Source of the DNA: an uncultured archaeon
GTDB lineage: Archaea > Asgardarchaeota > Lokiarchaeia > Sigyniarchaeales > SOKP01
DNA: 64,000 bases
Direction: 5' to 3'
Assembly (NCBI GenBank): GCA_964632315.1
Contig: CAZWEM010000009.1
Span: forward strand, 49,081 to 113,080
The translations under genes and the position numbers were made by a program. Positions 10,323 through 42,640 of the stretch are shown here, piece by piece. The notes under the pieces were generated by a model that did not search any database, had not been told where the DNA came from, and was given only the letters and a program-made list of their open reading frames with translations. Position 1 is the stretch's first letter; the number at the start of each line of letters is the position of its first letter.

Positions 10323-13300
10323 ATGGTTATAAATATTAAAGGTTATACTTGCCCTTTCTGTAGCAACGATTTAGAATCAAAATATTCTAAATGTTTCAAT
10401 ATATATTGCCAAGGCCAAGAATTTAATATAGGAAATTTAATCAATTATAGATTTAACCTTGAATTAGGTATAGGGAGAATAATAGGGAAATTAGAAATTC
10501 CGACCTCTAAATCTCTTGATGAAGAGGATACTCAGTATATTATTAAATATAAAGTCAGATTTGAGAATAATGTCACTAAGATAATCCATCCTATTGACTT
10601 AATTCATCATGTTTTTCAATTGAATGAGCGAGTAGTCACTCGTAATGGAGTTGGAGTTATCAATTCCAATGATTTTCTACTAGAAAATGGAAAGATTTCA
10701 TATGAAGTCCTTTATCCAAATGGGAAACTCGATCAAGTCTCTGAATCTGATACTTTCTCCATTTATCAAGAACCAGTGAAGAAAATTTTAGAACAAAAGA
10801 AACTTGATCCGCCGAGACAATTCCTAATTAAATATTGGGCGAATCTCTTTCATTCATTTTATACTTCGTATCAAATTAAATGTATAACAAACTCTAGACT
10901 TACTTTAATGCCACATCAAATAAATGTCGCTCACCGATTATCAGAGGAATATTTTCCAAGAGTCATTTTAGCAGATGAGGTTGGGCTTGGAAAGACTATT
11001 GAAGCAGGAATATACGTAAAGGAAATGATGGCCAGGAACTTGGCAGAAAGAGTTTTAATCATTGTGCCAGCAACTTTAGTAAGACAATGGCAATTCGAAA
11101 TGGAAAACAAATTCAACATGGAATTTGTAATCTATGATGGACAAAAAATAAAAGAACTCAAAAAAAATGGGAATATTTATAGTCAAGATAAATTAAGAAA
11201 TCCTTTTTTTTACGATAATTGTATTATATGCTCACTTCAATTTGCCAGAAATCCGAAATATGCAGAACTTTTAGGTCAAGTTTCATGGGATATAATCATA
11301 TTTGATGAGGCACATCATTTAAGGAGATATATTACAAATTTATCCACAGGAAATTATAGAGAAACTCTTAATTATAGTTTAGCGAGAAATTTAAGTGATA
11401 GTTGCCAGAGCTTATTATTATTAACTGCCACCCCACTTCAACTTCATTCATTTGAATTATTTTCTTTAATCGAACTAATAAAGGGGGGTACTTTCGAGAA
11501 TTTTTCTGACTTTGAGCATTTTAGGAAAAATCTACCGTTCATAAATTTACTTGTTTTTAACTTGAATAATATAAGTCATCTTAATAATTTTGAAGTAAAA
11601 AACACCATAAAATTATTAAAAAATTTAGGGTATATCAACAAGCGGGATTCCGATATTAAAATACTTGAGCATCTTAATTCAGATGATTACAAATTTGAAC
11701 TCATTAAAAAGGTTGAAAAGGACCATACATTATCAAAATTTCTAATTCGCAATCGTAAAAAGAATGTATTCTTTGATGAATATTTGAATAAAAGAATTGT
11801 CCAAACTATAATGGTACATCCAAAAAACGAAGAACTTGAAATCTATAATGAAATTCGCCTTTATCTTGCAAAAATTTACAATACCTCCGTGAGTAAAACA
11901 AATGTAGGACTCGGATTTGTTATTACAACCTTGCAAAAATTACTTACTAGCTCTAAAATTGCATTTTTAAAGAGCATTGAGAGACGCCTAGATCAAATTG
12001 AGCGCTCGAAGAGCTTAAGTTCCCAAGTTGATGACATTTTTGATGAAGATCCCGAGTTTTTTGAATCTGAATTAGAAGATGAATATTTAGACTCAGAAAT
12101 TTCTTTCAATTCAAATCGGGAAAAAGAACCATTGTTAAACTTAACCAACCAAGAACGAATCTTAAAGCATTTTTATGAGAAATTAATATCAATTCCATAT
12201 GATTCCAAATTAGATGCTCTTTTAAACTTGATGGAATCAATTTATAGAGATAATCCAAAAGAAAAGATATTAGTTTTTACTCAATTCGTCGATACACTTT
12301 TTTATCTACGAGATCTATTATCCAAACAAGGATATTCTACTTATATTTTTTATGGAGGGATGGATAAAGTAGAGAAACAGCATGCTGTGGAAAAATTTAG
12401 GGCAGACGAGGATTTTTCAATTCTACTATCTACAGAAATAGGAGGAGAGGGTCGCAATTTTCAATTCTGTAGGATTCTTATGAATTATGATCTTCCATGG
12501 AACCCCATGAAGTTAGAACAGAGAATAGGACGTTTAGATAGAATTGGTCAGCAATCGAAAGAAATTTTCATTTATAATTTTTTCTTAGAAGGAACTATTG
12601 AAACAGATATAATATTTGCCTTAGATAAACGCATAAACCTATTCGAAGAATCAATTGGACAACTTGAACCGATCATAGGAAACATCGAAAAAGATATGAA
12701 GGATTTAATATTTGCCTCAGAGAAAGAAAAACGTAGAAAATTAAACGAATTCACGCGTAAGCTTGATATGGAAGTAAAAAGGGCTAAAGAAATTGAAGTT
12801 CAATTGGACGATTTAATGATTGATAAGAAATCATTTCAAGTTGATGATTTAGTCACTTCTAGGGATAGTTGCGAAGAAGTGAAGCTTAGTCATAATGAAC
12901 TTTATTTATTGATAAAATATTTCTTCAACTTGGAAGAAGGAAAATATGGATTCTTTATTCCCGAAAAAGAAAATACAGTGAATAGTGAAGTCACGATTAA
13001 AATCTCGGAGGAATTGCGTAATAATGAACGATTAAGATTGTTTGAGGAATATTCTGGCACATTTGGATTGAATCTTGCGCGTGAAATGGAAGAGATCGAT
13101 TTTTTTGCCTTAGGTCATCCTCTCATTACGAATTTAATTGAATACTGTGAATCTAGGGCTTTCAATGGCTTATATACAATTTTATTTTTGAAGAAAAATG
13201 CACTTCCCTCAAGATTGGTAAATAAGATAAACCAGTCCAATACATTTTATCTCTTTATTTTTAGCATAAAGTTTCAAGGATATATCATTGAAAATCAATA

Positions 13301-33214: not shown

Positions 33215-34630
33215 ATGAATACTGAATTAGTTCCTCGCGAGTTAAAGGGAAAACGACTTATTGGATATTGTATTGGAGATTTTGGAGTTTTTTTATCCAA
33301 CATGTTAGAATCAGTATTTGTTTTCCAGTATTATGTTTATACTATCAATTTAAATTCTATACTTGTATCAATTGGAGTCACATCCCAACTAATAATTGGG
33401 TCCGCTCTCGCAATTATTTTTGGCGTAATTGTTGATAATAAAAAGCCAGGAAAATTGGGTAAACGACGGCCATTTTTGTTATACACATTACCTCTCTGGT
33501 TTATTACAGCAATATTATTATGGTTTCCTCCTTGGAAATGTCCCATTGATAATTCGTTTTACATTCCAACTGCTATTTTTTTTTGGACAGTAAGCATTTT
33601 GAAATCGATTGCTCGTTCATTATTCTATAATGTTTATTACTCCATGCTTCCAGAACAATCTCAAACATTAGAAAATCGAGAAAAAGTAGCATCTATCCGT
33701 TCAGCGTTATTGATTATTGGCTCAGTATTGTCTTTATTACTGCCCCTTATCGTACAAAGTTTGCTAGAAGATCCAGCGAACGTGAAGTGGTGGCAACCTT
33801 CTGGACAAGTAATTTTATTTTTTATTCCATTAACAGCGACTATTCTCGCAATTTTTGGATTAATATCCGTAATTTTAACATTCCTTTCTGTTGATGAAAG
33901 TTTTTATAAACTTAAGAAGATTCAACCAGAAAAAATTAAAATTAGCGCTGCCCTTAAAAGAATGAAAATACCATTAAAACATGATAATTTTATCCTCTAT
34001 TCTTTAGCATTATTCTTCATTACAATAACGGGTAAGATCTTAGGGTTACTCGTTTTTCCTTTCCAAACTTTCTTACTTGGTTTTAGGTCTTCAGAATTTT
34101 ACATCTATATTTTTATATCAATATTTGGCAAATTTGGTTGGTATTTTATTTGGAAACAAGCAAATAAGAAAAAGAAACCAGTGGTAAAATCGCTTTATCG
34201 AGTCATCTTTATTGCGATGATGGCTTCAATGCTTGATATAGTATTTTTAGTTCCGAACCTTCCATTTGAAATGAAAATAGTATTGTTTATCATCGTGTGG
34301 AGTACGGTATTAGGCTCATATTATTCATATACCCTTTTCTCAATTCCATTAGGAGCTTCAATTGTTCAAGAAGCCGCAGAAGTAATGAATGGCCCGACTG
34401 GAGATTTAGATGAGAGTTTATCGCTCATCTCAGGATCATATTACGGATTATCATATTTCGTAAGGTGGTTAGGACCCGCTTTTGCATCCATGTTTGTCGG
34501 AATATTTCTTAGCGGTCCTAATGAAGATAATCCAGTAGTCATTGCATTTCTTTTTTTCTCAATGGCTTTCTTCTACTTAGTTAGTCTTTTATTTATAAGA
34601 AAAATTAAGATGAAACAAAAAATCACTTAA
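33215..34630 (+). CDS. MFS transporter, glycoside-pentoside-hexuronide (MelB-like) family
   Basis: GY.IGDFG, D...GKLGKRRPFLL, SMLPE...ENR, about 12 TM segments. Confidence 0.82.
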   Translation: MNTELVPRELKGKRLIGYCIGDFGVFLSNMLESVFVFQYYVYTINLNSILVSIGVTSQLIIGSALAIIFGVIVDNKKPGKLGKRRPFLLYTLPLWFITAILLWFPPWKCPIDNSFYIPTAIFFWTVSILKSIARSLFYNVYYSMLPEQSQTLENREKVASIRSALLIIGSVLSLLLPLIVQSLLEDPANVKWWQPSGQVILFFIPLTATILAIFGLISVILTFLSVDESFYKLKKIQPEKIKISAALKRMKIPLKHDNFILYSLALFFITITGKILGLLVFPFQTFLLGFRSSEFYIYIFISIFGKFGWYFIWKQANKKKKPVVKSLYRVIFIAMMASMLDIVFLVPNLPFEMKIVLFIIVWSTVLGSYYSYTLFSIPLGASIVQEAAEVMNGPTGDLDESLSLISGSYYGLSYFVRWLGPAFASMFVGIFLSGPNEDNPVVIAFLFFSMAFFYLVSLLFIRKIKMKQKIT

Positions 34631-37455
34631 TTATCTAATGAAATTTCGAAGCTGCATATTTCAAATTTATTCAGTCTGAAATTTAATTTACCGTCTTTAT
34701 TCCAATTATACATAAAAATAGTATCTCTTTCAATTAAATCAATGGGTTTTATAGATTTTATTATTTTTCTTAATAGGGGATTAAAATTAACCTCAACATC
34801 AGTAGCTATTCCCATTGCCTCATAAAACCTTACTACTATTGAATGGTTTCCTATCCATTCATTATGTTTAATTGCCCCGAGAAATACGTTAGTAGGATAC
34901 ATGTCTATGAATTTTTCTATATTTAAAGAAGTTTTTTTTGTGCTTGCATTTAAAGGAATGATTGATACTGGCATGTTAAATTCAAGAGATTTTTGCCTTA
35001 CCAAGGGATTGGGAGTTCCATCTCCCTTCTTTAAAGTTCCTCCATTATGGGGTAAAATTGCATATCTACAGATAAAAGGACCTAATCCGCTAAATTCTGG
35101 AACCTGATGGGTAAATTCCTCTTCATTCCACTTTCGTTCTTCATTGACCCAAGCTTCGGGTGCTGGTGGTGGATATTTGCAAGATCTTAGCAAAGTTAAT
35201 CTCATATTCCCATGATCTACATCAAAAGCATATTTTCCCTCATTTATCATTGCTATACCCCAAGAATTATCTGACGTACTTAAATCAAAATATTCTTGGC
35301 AATGTTTTTCATAACGAGCTTTATCACAGGGAACTTCGGGATCTGTCTTGGAATTGATACTACAATACATTCCGTCTGCACATACGATAGCTGCATTGGT
35401 GGACGTGGAGTATAAGATCTTTAACATCACTTTTTTCTGCTTCCAATTGGTATAATATTCAAAGAAAATTTCGGGTATATCTTTGAATAATCTAATTTTT
35501 TGTACAACCTGGCTTATTCCTATAAGTTTTTTAATTTCTAAAGTTACAAAAACTGGACCATTATCAATTATATTTATCTCAACATCCTTATCATTTGCGA
35601 AATTCAGAGGATATTTCCAGTATTCTGGAGTTAAATTCCACGCTGGATCGTTATTATTGTCATCTAAAAATCCAAAGGTTAGATTTGAAGCATTACCATC
35701 AAGTAAATTATTTCCATCATTAATCTGCGCCGAAATTATCTTCAAAATCGCTCCATTTTGAGGATTAATTTCTATTGATAATTTACTATTCGATAATTTT
35801 TTCTCAGATATTTCCAAACCTGATTTATCTAAATTTAGATCATCAAGTAATGTAAATCTTACAGGGATTATGCTTAATGGTGGTAAATGTAATACTGACC
35901 ACCAACCCTCTGGAACCTTATCTTCTAATTCTTTAGGATCAGTTTTACTTCTTTGGCAATAAAACTCCTCATTATTTTTCAAGGATTTAACTTTCGCGAC
36001 TTTATATTTTTCATCTGCATTTATTAATGAATTGGGAAAAAAAACCCTGAAATTGCCACCCCAAGTATGAGGATTAAATATTAAAAAATCATAGAATAAT
36101 TGGTTCTTAATCTCATTGTATTCCTTTAGATTTAATCCAATTGCGGCTTCCTTGAAAATGTCACCTGTTTTTTCTTCCAAATATAGCCAATCGTCATAGC
36201 AATCGTCAAAGACTTCTGGAATTGAGCTTCCCGGTAAAACGTCATGAAATTGGTTCTTGAGGACTATCTTCCATAACTCTTCAAACTTTTCTTGAGGGAA
36301 TTTATAATCGGAATTTAGAATTGATGTAATAGATGCCAATAACTCTAGTGAAATTAATTTGTTTTCAAACTTGCGGTTAAATCTTTTCACGTTCGCGTGA
36401 TTTGAGAAACAACCTCGATGAGTTTCTAAATATAATTCATCCATCCAGATAGGAAACTGATCAGAGGATTTCTTTAACTCATTAAAAAAATCTTTAACTT
36501 TACTCCATTTGTAGTTTTTTAGTTTTGCAAATTCGTTAGCATAAGCTACTTCTTTATGAGTTGGACCATGACCTCCGTCACTTTTCCCGAAAAAATATCC
36601 AACGTGAGGACATATCTCCTCTTGAACGTGATTTTTTAAATTGCTATAATCTAACTCGTAATTCCATACTTTTCTACCTTCTGGCTTCAATAAATGTCTC
36701 CCAACTTGAAATTTTTGCCAAGTATAAAAAACGGAAAAATCCATGTGAAATTGACCCGTCAAAATTTTGGAGCCATCTGCTCCTTGCCACCAAAAATTTA
36801 CAAAAGGAAATGTTGTATCTAAATTCCATCCCATTTTAGTGGTCCAAAAATAATTAGCTCCTGATTTCACTAAAATTTGAGGTAATCCAAAATTATATCC
36901 AAATGAATCTAAAAACCATTCCCCTTCAGGAACTTGATTAAAATTTTTCCAACAAAATCTCATTCCATATAGTCGCTGTCGTATCATTGCCTCTCCGGAT
37001 GGCATCATGCAATCTGGTTCAACATAACATCCTCCTACAAGCTCAATGTTACCTTTTTTTACAAATTTCTGTATCTCTTTGAATAATTCAGGCTCGTCTT
37101 TTTTAATCCACTCAAGTAAGAGAGGTTGGCTTATAGCAAAACAAAAGGTTTCTGGAAACATCTTTGAGTGAGTCACGGCTTTCTGGAAGGTTACTTTTGC
37201 TTTCTTTCTGGTTTGTTCATACCTCCACATCCAAGCACAATCTATATGTGATTGTCCAACGATATGAATCATAAGACTATTTGGATCAGTAGTAGGAGAA
37301 ATTTGTTCATTCCATAACCTCAATTTTCTTCTGATTTTAATCTCTCGATTTCCAGAAAGCCATCTTTTCTTTACTTTTTCAGTATCTTGATCAGGTTCTT
37401 CTAGCTTTGAAACATCTAATCGATGATTTCCAGAATAATGCCCAATTTCTCTCAT
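34627..37455 (-). CDS. Alpha-mannosidase, glycoside hydrolase family 38
   Basis: GQSHIDCAWMW, VEPDC.MPSGE, DSFG, GDGG-like SDGGHGPT, ELYLETHRG, NQFHDVLPGSSI. Confidence 0.92.
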   Translation of the reverse strand: MREIGHYSGNHRLDVSKLEEPDQDTEKVKKRWLSGNREIKIRRKLRLWNEQISPTTDPNSLMIHIVGQSHIDCAWMWRYEQTRKKAKVTFQKAVTHSKMFPETFCFAISQPLLLEWIKKDEPELFKEIQKFVKKGNIELVGGCYVEPDCMMPSGEAMIRQRLYGMRFCWKNFNQVPEGEWFLDSFGYNFGLPQILVKSGANYFWTTKMGWNLDTTFPFVNFWWQGADGSKILTGQFHMDFSVFYTWQKFQVGRHLLKPEGRKVWNYELDYSNLKNHVQEEICPHVGYFFGKSDGGHGPTHKEVAYANEFAKLKNYKWSKVKDFFNELKKSSDQFPIWMDELYLETHRGCFSNHANVKRFNRKFENKLISLELLASITSILNSDYKFPQEKFEELWKIVLKNQFHDVLPGSSIPEVFDDCYDDWLYLEEKTGDIFKEAAIGLNLKEYNEIKNQLFYDFLIFNPHTWGGNFRVFFPNSLINADEKYKVAKVKSLKNNEEFYCQRSKTDPKELEDKVPEGWWSVLHLPPLSIIPVRFTLLDDLNLDKSGLEISEKKLSNSKLSIEINPQNGAILKIISAQINDGNNLLDGNASNLTFGFLDDNNNDPAWNLTPEYWKYPLNFANDKDVEINIIDNGPVFVTLEIKKLIGISQVVQKIRLFKDIPEIFFEYYTNWKQKKVMLKILYSTSTNAAIVCADGMYCSINSKTDPEVPCDKARYEKHCQEYFDLSTSDNSWGIAMINEGKYAFDVDHGNMRLTLLRSCKYPPPAPEAWVNEERKWNEEEFTHQVPEFSGLGPFICRYAILPHNGGTLKKGDGTPNPLVRQKSLEFNMPVSIIPLNASTKKTSLNIEKFIDMYPTNVFLGAIKHNEWIGNHSIVVRFYEAMGIATDVEVNFNPLLRKIIKSIKPIDLIERDTIFMYNWNKDGKLNFRLNKFEICSFEISLDN

Positions 37456-37467
37456 TTCTCCACTCCT

Positions 37468-38157
37468 CTATATTTTCAAAAATTTCTCATAATCATCTGA
37501 AAGTAAGTATAAAGGCTCCTCATCTTCTTCAATTCTAGTAAATCTTTTTGTTGGTTTTAGAAATTTATTATCTCTATAATCATCATTCACACTCGACACT
37601 TCGCCAATTAATACCATTCCATGACCTTTCTTGGCCCAAAATCTATGGTAATGGTTGGGAAATAGCGTTATCGACTCTCCAGGCTTTAATTCTATAACTG
37701 ATCCCGCTTTAATTCTTTTTTGTACTCCATCAACAGATATTTTTACTTCAGAATCGTCTAATTCATCTTCTTGATTTACATTATATAACTCAATCGACAA
37801 AATGCCACCGCCTCTATTTATAATATCCTCAATTTTCGACAAATGATGATGTAGTCTTGTCATTTGGTCTTCTTTTATGATCATGATCTTTTCACAATAT
37901 GGTTTTCCACCCATTAAAGAATGTTTTGGATCTCCATTTCTTGTCGTGAAATGAATTAATCCACTTTTCGCGAAATTTCCGCTTCCGTAATCGGTAATAT
38001 CCCATCCTAATTTATTTTTAATAACTTCATCTATTTCATTTCCCTTAGATTTCCATTCATTTAACTTCCAAAAAGCAAATTTGGGCAAATAGAAGTTTTG
38101 GATTTCTAGGAACTTTGTAGCCTTTTCCATTTCTTTATTTATTTCAGAGCGTTTCAC
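37468..38157 (-). CDS. D-lyxose/D-mannose family sugar isomerase (cupin)
   Basis: MKRSEIN, LGWDITDYG, YCEKIM, H-H..K.EDIINRGGG, PGESITL, H.FW, GEVSSVNDD..DN.F. Confidence 0.88.
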   Translation of the reverse strand: MKRSEINKEMEKATKFLEIQNFYLPKFAFWKLNEWKSKGNEIDEVIKNKLGWDITDYGSGNFAKSGLIHFTTRNGDPKHSLMGGKPYCEKIMIIKEDQMTRLHHHLSKIEDIINRGGGILSIELYNVNQEDELDDSEVKISVDGVQKRIKAGSVIELKPGESITLFPNHYHRFWAKKGHGMVLIGEVSSVNDDYRDNKFLKPTKRFTRIEEDEEPLYLLSDDYEKFLKI

Positions 38158-38284: not shown

Positions 38285-39268
38285 TTGGAGAAAAAACTAA
38301 TGACTATTCAATGGGGTAAAATGATCTTGCACGGTTTACTTAATGCCGTGTTTTATATTGGCATCCCTTACGGTATGATTTACTTACTGGAATATCTTAA
38401 TATCGTATCCTTTACAGAAGTATTTAAAATTTCAATAATTATTTTCGGAGTTATCGGTACCATTATATCCATGATTAAACATGCTTATCCAAAGGATACT
38501 TCTGCTAACCGCTTAATTTCGTTCTTTATTAGTATCTACTCGGGAATTTATTTGTTCTATATTTTTGGAGGTTTTACACCCGGCGTAGAATTAGGAACAT
38601 ATTCAATTAAGACTGATTTACTTCAAGTTAACTTAGGACTGAAGGTAATTGCGTGGTTATTGTTAGCCTCAACAGCGATAAGAGGATTGCAATATTTAGT
38701 TGAGGCAATAGAATTACGCAAAAATAAACAATACAATGTAAAAGTGAAAAGACAATTTAGATTAAGTAAGGTGTTCAAAGCCTTTGGATTTTTAATGAGT
38801 TTAGTAACTATAGGCTATTTTGCCAGTGTAATATTTAGTGGCATGAATCTTAGACCAAATATTGACCCAAACTTCGCTTTAGGATGGAATGATGGAGGAA
38901 CACCACTAAATCCTGCTGATGACACAATCAATATTACAGTTACATTTGACATCATAAATGGTGGTATTTATGCGGTATATGACGTAAATCTATCAATGGA
39001 TGTCTTTACGGAAACTACAAGTAACCCAATTGCTTTACCAGAATATACAAAAATAGGAGAATCACCCAATCATTATTATCCTGCTTTTCATTCATTCACT
39101 TCGACTTTAGGTGAAACTATAACTATAGATATTAACCCGCTCTATGCTCCTGGATTAGCTACAACTGATGCAACCCTACGATTGCAAATTTCCTTTGAAA
39201 CTTTATATGCCTTAATCTATATTGATCTTAATATTTCAGTTACTACACCTTGGAATTCCCTAATATAA
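38285..39268 (+). CDS. Hypothetical membrane protein with C-terminal extracellular beta domain
   Basis: About five TM segments followed by a beta-rich tail. Start uncertain (TTG 38285 or ATG 38300). Confidence 0.7.
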   Translation: MEKKLMTIQWGKMILHGLLNAVFYIGIPYGMIYLLEYLNIVSFTEVFKISIIIFGVIGTIISMIKHAYPKDTSANRLISFFISIYSGIYLFYIFGGFTPGVELGTYSIKTDLLQVNLGLKVIAWLLLASTAIRGLQYLVEAIELRKNKQYNVKVKRQFRLSKVFKAFGFLMSLVTIGYFASVIFSGMNLRPNIDPNFALGWNDGGTPLNPADDTINITVTFDIINGGIYAVYDVNLSMDVFTETTSNPIALPEYTKIGESPNHYYPAFHSFTSTLGETITIDINPLYAPGLATTDATLRLQISFETLYALIYIDLNISVTTPWNSLI

Positions 39269-39361
39269 TTTCATAAACCTTCTTTTTATTTCTTTTTTTA
39301 AATAAAATAATGATTAAACTTATTCGTATTTTTTAAATTATATTAAATAAATATTAATTCT

Positions 39362-39886
39362 ATGAGTCAAGAACCACCAAGACCAAGTGGTTTGTCCGTT
39401 GGTTCCAAAGCACCTATGATTGACACTCAAGATATTTATGGAAAGTCAATTAATCTTAATAAGCTTCTTGAAGAATATGATGGTGTACTTTTAGATTTTT
39501 TCAGAGGAAATTGGTGAAGTCATTGCAAAAAGCATTTAAATCTTTTAACTCGGGAGCATTATAAATTTATTAATAAGAAAATCAAATTAATCTCAATAGC
39601 GAGTGACAGTATAAGATTATTGCAAAAATTTAAAGAAGAAAATAATTTTTCTATAGATCTAATAGCTGATAGAGGAGCAAAAATTGCCAAGGATTATTTT
39701 GTATACTGGTTTGCTCATGGCGGGGGAGGCTCACTGAATGTGAAGCAAGCAGTACCAAGTAAATTTTTAATCAATAAAAATAAGAAGATTGTCTGGACTT
39801 ATATTGGAAAGGATAAAACTGACAGACCTTCTATTGAACTGATGATGGAAGCAATCAATAAAAAAATTTTAAACCCTTTTGAATGA
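39362..39886 (+). CDS. Peroxiredoxin-like (AhpC/TSA, thioredoxin fold) selenoprotein, 174 aa, Sec52
   Basis: Continuous frame from ATG 39362: MSQEPPRPSGLSVGSKAPMIDTQDIYG...LLDFFRGNW[TGA 39515-39517]SHCKKHL...ISIASD...DLIAD...AVPSKFLINKNKKIVWTYIGKDKTDRPS. The TGA occupies the first Cys position of the RGxWCxxC motif. The ORF track shows only the 3' half. Confidence 0.9.
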
Positions 39887-39918
39887 CGCGGATATATAAA
39901 AGTTAGATATCCGTGGAC
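39883..39918 (+). promoter_or_regulatory. Eukaryote-like SECIS element (AUGA...GA kink-turn core)
   Basis: ATGAC-GCGGATAT-ATAAAAGTTAG-ATATCCGT-GGAC: tandem G.A/A.G core, 8-9 bp stem, and an apical A-run. GC-rich relative to its surroundings and directly 3' of the TGA-containing gene. Confidence 0.82.
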
Positions 39919-39941
39919 GGCCCGCAAAGGTTAGGGATCAT

Positions 39942-40802
39942 CTAATTTTTTTTTCTTTTTCTTCTATAGGTATAAAATCCTTTTCCAGATTTCAAACCAA
40001 GATCTCCTTCTTCTACTAATTTCTCTAATTCTTCTGGTGGTTTATCCAATTCATTTCCAGATTCATGATAATAAGAATTTTCCACATCGAGTATTACATC
40101 TAAACCAACTCCATCCATTAAACTAAAAGGTCCCATGGACATCCCAGTGAAGATTTGCCATGCTTTATCCACAGTTTCTATATCCGCATATCCTCCCGCC
40201 CAGATTTTTAGACATTCCTTTTTTACAGCATGCCAGACTCGGTTAAACACAAAACCTAAACACTCCTTTTTAACCTCTAAGGGATAGCATTCTATCGTTT
40301 CTATCCATTTCTTACCTGCTTCAAAAGTTTCTTCACTTGTTTTTGTCCCTCTCATTATGTCCAGCATCGGTCTTGTGGGAATTGGAGGATAAACATGGAG
40401 ATTTAATACTTTATCCTTTCTTTTCACGACAGATTCTATTTTAGAAACAGGAAATGATGAACTATTAGTAGCTATGATGGTATGGGGAGGAGCGAGTTCA
40501 TCAATCTTAGAAAATATTTCTCTCTTTAATTCTAACTTTTCAGGGACTGCTTCTATGACTAAATCTGTATTTTCCAAGGCTTTTAAAAGATCATTGTGAA
40601 AGGAAATAGATTCAGATTTTTCCTCATAGAGATTTCGCCGTTTTAATAAGCCAGTTATCTCCTTTTCACTCTTTAATAAATACTCTTCACTTATATCATA
40701 AACTTTTATGTTAAAATCATACATTATTGCTCTAGATGCAATCTGGGTACCAGTAAATCCTGCTCCTACAATAGTTATATTTGAAATTTCCATTTTGATC
40801 AT
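39942..40802 (-). CDS. 3-hydroxyacyl-CoA dehydrogenase family protein
   Basis: IVGAGFTG, IEAVPE, IATNSSS, GFVFNR, MGPF.LMD.VGLDV, LGLKSGKGFY. Confidence 0.9.
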   Translation of the reverse strand: MIKMEISNITIVGAGFTGTQIASRAIMYDFNIKVYDISEEYLLKSEKEITGLLKRRNLYEEKSESISFHNDLLKALENTDLVIEAVPEKLELKREIFSKIDELAPPHTIIATNSSSFPVSKIESVVKRKDKVLNLHVYPPIPTRPMLDIMRGTKTSEETFEAGKKWIETIECYPLEVKKECLGFVFNRVWHAVKKECLKIWAGGYADIETVDKAWQIFTGMSMGPFSLMDGVGLDVILDVENSYYHESGNELDKPPEELEKLVEEGDLGLKSGKGFYTYRRKRKKN

Positions 40803-40893
40803 TAAAAATTAATTATTAAATGTGATTGATTTTTTGATACTTAAAAAATTTAAGATATGACGATTAAAAAAGAAAAAGAAAGGAAAAATTTTC

Positions 40894-41133
40894 TTAAATT
40901 CCTCTTACTCTAACTCCAAGTATCAACAATATCCAAGCTAGAAACATGAGGAATAACCCGATTATCATCCATATCTCTCCTGAACTCAAGTTCGGTTGAA
41001 AAAAGGTTATCGCTGGTAAGAATGAATAGAAACCTATTACACCCCATATTAATTCAATTATCAAAATCATTCCAAGAATGAAGAAAATAATTGATAAAAC
41101 ATAGGTTATTTTTTTAGGAGGGCTCCATGCCAT
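40894..41133 (-). CDS. Small two-TM membrane protein
   Basis: 79 aa with two hydrophobic helices. Confidence 0.65.
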   Translation of the reverse strand: MAWSPPKKITYVLSIIFFILGMILIIELIWGVIGFYSFLPAITFFQPNLSSGEIWMIIGLFLMFLAWILLILGVRVRGI

Positions 41134-41347
41134 ATACTTTCACTTCATATTCATTTATGATTTGTGATCTTAATTTGTTCTTCATTCTATTTTAATACAT
41201 GGATTTTTTTTAAAAAATTCAGATTTTGCTTGCATCTAATCTTTTTACTTCTTCAAGTTAAAAAGACTTTATTTATGATAATATCCAATATTTGATTTAA
41301 TTAAATTTGAATTAGAAATCGAAAACTTACTTAAAAAGGAATTTAAA

Positions 41348-42640
41348 ATGACAAAAGAACAACCAGCTTGGTATGAAGCTCAAGTTGTTAAAGATATGAT
41401 GGCTTTAATGGGCGGAAGAGCATTGCGAGGAGTTATGTCAAATTACTTTTCCAGTAGAATTTATAAGGGAAAAGTGGGACTACTACAAGTTACAAATTAT
41501 TTAGAAGCTATGTTCGACAAGAAGGACAGACGTGCATTAATAATAACTGATTCCTTCACACAGAAGTATGCTAAAAAGGTGACGGAGTACTTAGATATGA
41601 TAGATATGGAATATCGAATCTGGTCGGGTGCAGAACCCGAAGTTCCAGTCCCTACAATTGAGGTAGGGGCAAAAGTTTGCGAGGAATTCAAGCCACAAGT
41701 GATCTTTGCTATCGGAGGCGGGAGTGTCATGGATACAGCTAAAATGGTGATGATCAAGTATGAACAACCAGAAAAGAATATTTTCATGATTTTACCCTAT
41801 TTTGGCTCTTTAGGTTTGAGGAAAAAGTTTCGATTCTTTATTGCAATTCCCACAACATCTGGTACAGGTTCTGAAGTCTCATCTGCAGCAGTACTCACTG
41901 ATATGGATCGCGATCCTCCTAAAAAGTTAGAAGTAATGAGTGATGAATTTCCTGCTGACATTACCATTTTAGATACAGATTTCGTCAAAGATATGCCCCC
42001 ACTTCTAACTGCCGGAACTGGTTTGGATGCATTATCACATGCGATGGGAAGTTATGTTTCAAATTGGGGCTCTCCCTATATTGACGCGATGAACTATACA
42101 GCAATAAAGGAAATTGTTAAGTTCTTGCCTCGTGCTTATAAATATGGTGCAAAAGACATTGAATCCCGAGATCACATGCACATGGCGGCATTAATGGCGG
42201 GAATAGGATTTGGGAATACTGTTCCTGGCATAGATCACGCTCTTGGTCATTCTTTCGGAAAAATCTTTGGGGTTCATCATGGTTTATCTGTAGGATTGTT
42301 TTTACCTTATTCAATTGATTTTCAATCTAAAATTACAGAGAGATGGATTGATTTATGTCCAATTTTTAATATTGATACTAAAGGTAAAAATACTGAAGTA
42401 TTGTACGATGAATTTAGAGCAAATTTGGTTGAGTTTATTAGATCGATCGACGCTCCAACATGCGTTCAAGAGTTGAAAAATCCTAAACTTTCTAAGGAAG
42501 ATTATTTTGCCAAAATTGATTTACTTGTCCAGTATTCCGAAGATGACGCAGTAAGCTTAACTTCATTAAGGCCTATAAATTCTGAGTTATATAGGAAAAT
42601 CCTTGAATATGCTTGGGAGGGAAAGAAAATCAACTTTTAA
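41348..42640 (+). CDS. Iron-containing alcohol dehydrogenase
   Basis: IGGGSVMDTAK, IPTTSGTGSE, GLDALSHA, DHALGH, HHG. Confidence 0.9.
   Translation: MTKEQPAWYEAQVVKDMMALMGGRALRGVMSNYFSSRIYKGKVGLLQVTNYLEAMFDKKDRRALIITDSFTQKYAKKVTEYLDMIDMEYRIWSGAEPEVPVPTIEVGAKVCEEFKPQVIFAIGGGSVMDTAKMVMIKYEQPEKNIFMILPYFGSLGLRKKFRFFIAIPTTSGTGSEVSSAAVLTDMDRDPPKKLEVMSDEFPADITILDTDFVKDMPPLLTAGTGLDALSHAMGSYVSNWGSPYIDAMNYTAIKEIVKFLPRAYKYGAKDIESRDHMHMAALMAGIGFGNTVPGIDHALGHSFGKIFGVHHGLSVGLFLPYSIDFQSKITERWIDLCPIFNIDTKGKNTEVLYDEFRANLVEFIRSIDAPTCVQELKNPKLSKEDYFAKIDLLVQYSEDDAVSLTSLRPINSELYRKILEYAWEGKKINF

Follow-up and report, generated by a model that had tools for sequence, protein, structure and literature searches.

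A peroxiredoxin-like gene of an Asgard archaeon whose in-frame UGA is very probably decoded as selenocysteine under a lokiSECIS element

In the stretch of DNA analysed here (the window: 64,000 nucleotides from an uncultured archaeon, on contig C9 of its draft genome), a gene for a peroxiredoxin-like protein, PrxL, is interrupted by an in-frame TGA at 39515-39517 and ends in an RNA hairpin. Does this TGA break the gene, or does it specify selenocysteine (Sec), with the hairpin acting as a selenocysteine insertion sequence (SECIS) element? A preliminary description of the window, made from its letters, had proposed the latter. We conclude that the locus is, with high probability, a PrxL-type selenoprotein gene of a Lokiarchaeia/Promethearchaeota-type Asgard archaeon, in which UGA-52 is decoded as Sec under a SECIS element of the kind published for Lokiarchaeota (lokiSECIS).

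Gene structure and conservation of the in-frame TGA

Translation gave a single frame from ATG 39362 to TGA 39884-39886, whose sole internal TGA (39515-39517) is codon 52. The residues around it are DFFRGNW-U-SHC, where U stands for Sec, and the preliminary description had read both the frame and the FFRGNW-U-SHC motif in the same way. The gene comprises:

39362-39886, plus strand: PrxL coding sequence (CDS), 174 codons plus stop; peroxiredoxin (Prx)-like thioredoxin-fold protein with a UxxC redox box
39515-39517, plus strand: in-frame UGA, probably read as Sec52; first position of the redox box
39524-39526, plus strand: TGC for Cys55, second position of the redox box and the sole Cys among the 174 residues

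Translation table 11 splits the gene into a 51-aa open reading frame (ORF; 39362-39517) and an 88-aa ORF starting at TTG 39620, the latter being the truncated product that the preliminary description had expected from standard annotation. Two Pfam domains extend across the TGA: AhpC-TSA (PF00578) covers residues 13-145 (E 9e-20), Redoxin (PF08534) matches with E 8e-14, and both together span residues 13-158.

We then searched 60 related genomes in six frames, including 36 congeneric genomes and 14 of the sister family. PrxL was present in 25 of the 36 and in five of the 14, respectively, and every match covering residue 52 carried TGA at that site. Over 20 congeneric genomes have retained TGA and hairpin alike. 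In the reconstructed orthologs the motif is FFRGNW-U-[SNET]-H-[C/U], with 63-75% identity on either side of the TGA; the position of Cys55 is thus occupied by C or U. A paralog with a UxxU box (PrxL.1 type) was not found in the host genome with the PrxL query and is present in several congeners.

Database relatives listed as full-length lie on short contigs and show W at the Sec site, meaning that the TGA was called as Trp. The remaining relatives, which come from metagenome-assembled genomes of Lokiarchaeota, Promethearchaeota and Thorarchaeota, are called redoxin or peroxiredoxin and consist of 95-120 aa from the 3' part of the gene; the nearest named truncated ones are 67-75% identical to PrxL. 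These entries bear out the truncation by annotation and also indicate where the organism belongs. TGC or TGT at 39515, which the preliminary description had named as evidence against recoding, was looked for in contigs from a salt-marsh run that belongs to another study (X2). These contigs cover 39415-39778 and list no change at 39515-39517; no single contig spans the whole stretch, and depth was 4-9 in the runs compared.

A probable SECIS element overlapping the end of the gene

The hairpin begins 366 nt past the Sec codon and overlaps the last codons of PrxL. Its parts are:

39883-39886, plus strand: AUGA, 5' half of the SECIS core; UGA 39884-39886 doubles as the PrxL stop codon
39887-39915, plus strand: upper stem and apical loop; 39887-39895 pairs with 39907-39915 (9 bp), loop 39896-39906
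39916-39918, plus strand: GA plus C, 3' half of the core; alignment columns G56, A57 and C58, invariant in 22 sequences
39919-39932, plus strand: 3' mini-hairpin (GGCC, loop CGCAAA, GGUU), from the predicted fold; putatively functional
39874-39877, plus strand: 5' arm of the lower stem, CCCU, inside the CDS (codons N-P-F); pairs with 39933-39936 in the minimum free energy (MFE) fold
39933-39936, plus strand: 3' arm of the lower stem, AGGG, in the MFE fold

The apical loop of 11 nt, AUAAAAGUUAG, starts with AUAAA, so that four of its first five bases are A, and ends in AG. The upper stem includes the closing C-G pair. The preliminary description had placed a SECIS-like hairpin about 370 nt downstream of the TGA. 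The hairpin is indeed there, but its stem has 9 bp rather than 8, and its AUGA contains the gene's own stop.

Across 22 aligned orthologous elements, the G and the last A of AUGA, three loop adenines, the final loop G and the GAC are all invariant, and AUGA as a whole is nearly so, the one exception being AGGA. The 9-bp stem is paired in 93.9% of cells across orthologs, compared with 28-60% when the partners are slid. Compensatory changes were seen in all nine pairs of the upper stem (9/9), and RNAalifold independently gave the same stem. The asymmetric GAA/A bulge that separates the GC-rich stems of methanococcal elements is absent, the predicted stem being continuous and AU-rich at its top. 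The label 'eukaryote-type SECIS', given in the preliminary description, holds for the AUGA/GA core and the lokiSECIS features; it does not hold in the sense of a canonical eukaryotic SECIS, given the 9-bp helix and the lack of an Rfam match.

Two further helices accompany the core. The mini-hairpin is 90.9% paired across PrxL orthologs, mostly by sequence conservation (ACC...GGU), and all other five lokiSECIS elements of the genome have a small hairpin directly after GA(C/U), with sequences unrelated between genes. The lower stem occurs as CCC/GGG-like or longer versions in most PrxL orthologs; it is only 64% paired in the MAFFT alignment because its register shifts. In most PrxL orthologs the mini-hairpin and the lower stem make a three-way arrangement. 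The main texts (as distinct from the figures) of the two reports on Asgard selenoproteins compared here, PMC4989117 and PMC11227280, do not mention the mini-hairpin, and its placement between the GAC and the lower stem is possibly an undescribed detail. Should it prove functional as well as undescribed, the lineage would have a SECIS module of its own, on which a SECIS-binding factor that replaces SBP2 might dock.

Sharing of the stop codon with the core is not general. P0003 and P0004, the nearest relatives in the database (84% and 83% identity), have this layout too, as do a few others; in most congeneric orthologs the stop is a TAA or TAG located between a few and about 20 nt upstream of the core. 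We regard it as rather unlikely that the PrxL SECIS as a whole is a three-way structure of lower stem, kink-turn core with upper stem, and 3' mini-hairpin, its 5' part being translated and its AUGA supplying the stop. Were this so, a stop placed within the core would serve as an inherent means of telling Sec-UGA from stop-UGA.

The host genome encodes the machinery for Sec decoding

The host genome is a 4.45-Mb metagenome-assembled draft in 119 contigs, with 32.9% G+C and 8.6% contamination. It contains a tRNA-Sec with anticodon tca (61 bits, over the Rfam cut-off) directly upstream of the gene for SepSecS (373 bits). A SelB-like gene (E 5e-70; region C35:5750-6640) lies about 3 kb away on the same contig, in a cluster at C35:1160-6640, and a PSTK-like gene was matched with E 6e-46. 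Two SelD paralogs stand about 1 kb apart (C3 81340-84049), and in each the known Sec site (G-U-S/N-C-K) is an in-frame TGA. The host has the full set of tRNA-Sec, PSTK, SepSecS, SelB/EFSec and SelD, and with it the gene content of a Sec-decoding organism; a search for this machinery was among the checks proposed in the preliminary description.

TGA also serves as an ordinary stop codon, ending 392 (21%) of the 1877 open frames that are 300 codons or longer. The tRNA-Sec is the only tRNA with a tca anticodon found, in a whole-genome ARAGORN run without intron mode that gave 11 tRNAs, so that this census is incomplete. On the window ARAGORN gave no tRNA.

The same motif follows other TGA-containing genes

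We defined a strict motif of AUGA, a 9-bp stem (no more than one mismatch), an 11-nt loop that has four or more A in its first five bases and AG at its end, and GA. It matched five times in the 4.45-Mb genome and not once in any of six Markov-1 simulated genomes. The five matches, and a sixth from a looser scan, were each found immediately 3' of an ORF that contains TGA: two hdrA-mvhD pairs, an ORF with a tandem TGA-TGA, an ORF adjacent to a P-type ATPase gene, a small membrane ORF and PrxL. The preliminary description had proposed looking for the same hairpin after other such genes, hdrA among them, and it was seen after both hdrA-mvhD pairs and the further ORFs. The loci other than PrxL are:

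C52:~10400-12500 (plus strand) and C2:~100100-102600 (minus strand): hdrA-mvhD (vhuD) tandem pairs with several in-frame TGAs each (loci L057, L058)
C14:57703-58173, minus strand: tandem-TGA ORF of 157 codons, HAD-U-U-ADN; perfect lokiSECIS at C14:57651-57685, minus strand (locus L054)
C8:107421-107738, minus strand: one-TGA ORF of about 106 codons, FYHSSES-U-LLSFC; perfect lokiSECIS at C8:107369-107403, minus strand (locus L055:322-639, minus strand)
C3:40577-40762, minus strand: small membrane ORF of 62 codons; SECIS at C3:40531-40565, minus strand (locus L056:278-463, minus strand)

The hdrA-mvhD pairs have a single lokiSECIS each, after the second gene, which is the published arrangement (PMC4989117). 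The tandem-TGA ORF has no Pfam match; 34 of 40 congeneric genomes have homologs with two TGAs, and C44 carries a paralog. The C8 ORF, likewise without a Pfam match, is divergent from the P-type ATPase gene.

The small ORF on C3 has one predicted transmembrane helix, a C-terminal GGGG-U(TGA)-G-C and a TAA stop 11 nt ahead of a perfect lokiSECIS. It has no Pfam match. Weak relatives with one TGA were found in seven congeneric genomes, with the same SECIS at five of those loci, and the two reconstructed ORFs read GGGUGC and GGGUPC. The ORF does not belong to any Asgard selenoprotein family given in PMC11227280 or PMC13188914. Its sequence features mark it as a candidate gene for a small membrane selenoprotein of a new kind.

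A thioredoxin-type UxxC site on a peroxiredoxin-like fold

The AlphaFold model of PrxL has a mean confidence score (pLDDT) of 89.8 and places U52 as the first residue of a helix, 52-64. Its best fold matches are Bcp4, PrxQ, AhpE and ResA, with template modelling (TM) scores of 0.81/0.89 against Bcp4 (PDB entry 3hjp). U52 and C55 align with the WCxxC of solved ResA structures, U52 taking the place of the first Cys. A Flavobacteriaceae homolog shares the RGNWCSHCKKHL motif and has Cys (RGNWCSHC) at the position of U52. Cys was hence found at position 52 in homologs, as the preliminary description had foreseen. An exact-peptide pattern search of genome contigs returned one distant bacterial Cys homolog and nothing else; the yield was so small because such patterns miss Sec genes.

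The site differs from that of true peroxiredoxins. PrxL has no T/S-x-x-C motif: Gly49 stands at -3 from U52, and there is no Pro or Thr within DFFRGNWU. The NCBIfam PrxU model scored 19 bits against a cut-off of 270, its PxxxT/SxxC(U) site being absent, and the model 'SelL-related redox protein' matched weakly, under its cut-off (E 9e-12). The preliminary description had placed the TGA at the catalytic Cys position of AhpC/TSA-like proteins; the domain and the aligned Cys of ResA agree with this, whereas the box is UxxC and not the site of a true peroxiredoxin. Judged by sequence, the active site of PrxL is a thioredoxin-type redox box, unlike the T/S-x-x-C of true peroxiredoxins. The product is most likely a thiol/selenol-disulfide oxidoreductase working through a selenenylsulfide bond, and its activity may possibly be that of a peroxide or disulfide reductase.

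Genomic context

PrxL is a monocistronic gene among ordinary metabolic neighbours without a visible functional link to it. A 3-hydroxyacyl-CoA dehydrogenase gene, named by its Pfam match, lies on the minus strand at 39942-40802, convergent with PrxL. Genes for a GH38 alpha-mannosidase, a D-lyxose isomerase and an Fe-alcohol dehydrogenase are also nearby (window 34627-38157, minus strand, and 39942-42640), and a 327-aa ORF at 38285-39268 has no Pfam match. One further feature follows the SECIS:

39946-39954, plus strand: run of nine T, probably an archaeal transcription stop signal; overlaps the 3' end of the dehydrogenase gene

T-runs are found 3' of the SECIS in orthologous PrxL loci as well. 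A scan for sigma-70 promoters and intrinsic terminators was uninformative for an archaeon.

Weighing the alternatives

Several results count against decoding of UGA-52 as Sec. The folding energy of the hairpin does not differ from that of shuffled sequences (z -1.1), and Rfam gave no SECIS model, either over the whole window at the gathering threshold or over 39300-40000 at E up to 10. The PSTK-like and SelB-like scores are under the NCBIfam trusted cut-offs, which belong to models from other lineages. SBP2 was not detected in Lokiarchaeota (PMC4989117), and direct evidence of Sec insertion was found for no Asgard selenoprotein, here or in the literature consulted. The published tools are known to miss lokiSECIS elements (PMC4989117). 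The case for the SECIS rests on covariation and on the specificity of the motif rather than on stability. The weak Rfam matches in 39300-40000, to a plastid intron, a thermometer and a microRNA, were set aside as chance.

Could the locus instead be a pseudogene, or two separate small ORFs, in which the TGA is a genuine nonsense codon and at most the 51-aa and 88-aa fragments are made? Table 11 does yield these two ORFs, and public annotations of relatives call only the 95-120-aa 3' fragments. However, a TGA shared at this codon by more than 20 species, within a protein 63-75% identical on both sides, is not what decay would leave, nor is one Pfam domain running across a TGA that replaces the catalytic Cys and is followed by a covarying SECIS. 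The conservation largely refutes a pseudogene, and we give it a very slim chance. A sequencing or assembly error for TGC or TGT at 39515 is slimmer still. The draft state of the metagenome-assembled genome (119 contigs, 8.6% contamination) and the low run depth of 4-9 would leave room for such an error, but the contigs from the other study list no change at 39515-39517, and all orthologs from other assemblies have the same TGA.

Reassignment of TGA to a standard amino acid (Trp or Gly, codes 4 or 25) would account for the full-length relatives that gene callers produced on short contigs with W at this site. It is hard to reconcile with TGA ending 21% of the long open frames, with tRNA-Sec as the only tca-anticodon tRNA found in the incomplete census of 11 tRNAs, and with in-frame TGAs being confined to SECIS-followed genes, at Cys positions; its probability is close to nil. 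It is also very improbable, though a shade less so than a pseudogene, that the hairpin is a mere transcript-end or stability element and that UGA-52 is read through by another mechanism or signal. The hairpin does sit at the 3' end of the gene, with a T-run after it, and its energy is not unusual. Yet a plain terminator has no need of a conserved unpaired AUGA, a GA(C), an A-rich loop start or a loop-final G, and the exact geometry of 9 bp and 11 nt recurs only after TGA-containing genes and fits the published lokiSECIS.

Recoding of the UGA to Sec, as put forward in the preliminary description, is accordingly supported by the machinery, by the conserved TGA and hairpin in more than 20 congeneric genomes and by covariation in 9/9 pairs, and Sec insertion itself is what we infer from these sequence data. 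The further claim that the selenoprotein was 'hidden' is right in that gene callers miss it; the family and its SECIS have been published for the lineage.

A model for decoding of UGA-52

We propose that the PrxL mRNA would end soon after the element, at the T-run 39946-39954, and that its 3' end would fold into a lokiSECIS made up of an AUGA/GA kink-turn-like core, the 9-bp upper stem, the 11-nt loop, the 3' mini-hairpin and a short lower stem. Sec-tRNA(Sec), charged via SerRS, PSTK, SepSecS and SelD, would be delivered by a SelB of the archaeal/eukaryotic type (EFSec). The folded element would recruit the SelB.GTP.Sec-tRNA(Sec) complex, directly or through a SECIS-binding protein, and the recruited complex would decode UGA-52, 366 nt upstream. 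A ribosome at codons 171-174 would unwind the lower stem and the core. The UGA inside the AUGA (39884-39886) would then be read as a stop, because the ribosome arriving there has already melted the element. In the resulting 174-residue product, U52-S-H-C55 at the N-terminus of the helix would form the selenenylsulfide redox pair.

We also considered a C-terminally extended isoform, in which the terminal UGA is read through as Sec for 16 more codons to a TAG. This is unlikely, as the SECIS would be unfolded at that codon, and the sequence of the extension is dictated by the RNA stem, which also disfavours it.

For annotation, SECIS-aware gene calling would mend both the truncated redoxin fragments and the entries with Trp read-through. 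PrxL, being well defined, monocistronic and with a single Sec, is a convenient test case for Sec insertion.

Comparison with known systems

Five selenoprotein families were described in Lokiarchaeota, PrxL among them (Mariotti et al. 2016, PMC4989117). The published PrxL proteins are without T/S-x-x-C and have a thioredoxin-type box, UxxC (PrxL.2) or UxxU (PrxL.1), and no other Cys (PMC4989117). Prx-like selenoproteins were later reported in 43.2% of Sec-using Asgard archaea, mostly with elements resembling type I eukaryotic SECIS (eSECIS-like; Huang et al. 2024, PMC11227280), and 'Prx-like thiol:disulfide oxidoreductase, UxxC/UxxU' is one of the archaeal families of selenoproteins given in a 2026 review. 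The gene described here shares with Lokiarchaeota PrxL.2 the thioredoxin/Prx fold, the box of Sec followed by Cys, the lack of T/S-x-x-C and of any further Cys, the single-gene unit, the lokiSECIS at the CDS end and a Lokiarchaeia-type host with full Sec machinery. Nothing essential sets the two apart in a comparison made by published features. The PrxL gene is a rediscovery of a catalogued family and element; its novelty is low because both were already known.

In the published lokiSECIS, which lies near the CDS end, AUGA and GA enclose a stem of 9 bp, and the loop of 11 nt is rich in A at its start and closes with G, in most cases preceded by A (PMC4989117). The PrxL element agrees with the lokiSECIS and the Asgard type I eSECIS-like elements in all of these points, including the AG at the end of the loop. 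It differs in that the loop starts with AUAAA rather than AAAAA, and in the conserved 3' mini-hairpin between the GAC and the lower stem. The position of the stop has a precedent: many Loki selenoprotein genes end in UGA, and in VhuU.1 the AUGA itself is the stop codon, which was attributed to a minimal-distance requirement (PMC4989117).

With type I eukaryotic SECIS elements the PrxL element shares the location after the CDS, a core (AUGA...GA) in which tandem sheared G.A pairs are possible, an apical loop with unpaired adenines and an action at a distance, here 366 nt. In contrast to them, its helix is shorter, at 9 bp (PMC4989117), it overlaps the CDS, and it has no Rfam match at E 10; SBP2, moreover, is not known from Asgard archaea (PMC4989117).

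Bacterial Prx-like thiol:disulfide oxidoreductase selenoproteins and metazoan SelL (UxxU) are alike in the Prx-like fold and the UxxC/UxxU box. They belong to other domains of life, have low identity to PrxL and use other types of SECIS, namely an in-frame hairpin in bacteria and a eukaryotic SECIS in the 3' untranslated region for SelL. ResA/TlpA and BCP/PrxQ have the same fold as PrxL but are Cys-based; ResA is membrane-anchored and extracytoplasmic, and BCP/PrxQ have the PxxxT/SxxC site that PrxL is without. Taken as one of the catalogued families, PrxL confirms the published biology, in which Loki-type Asgard archaea use eukaryote-like 3' SECIS elements.

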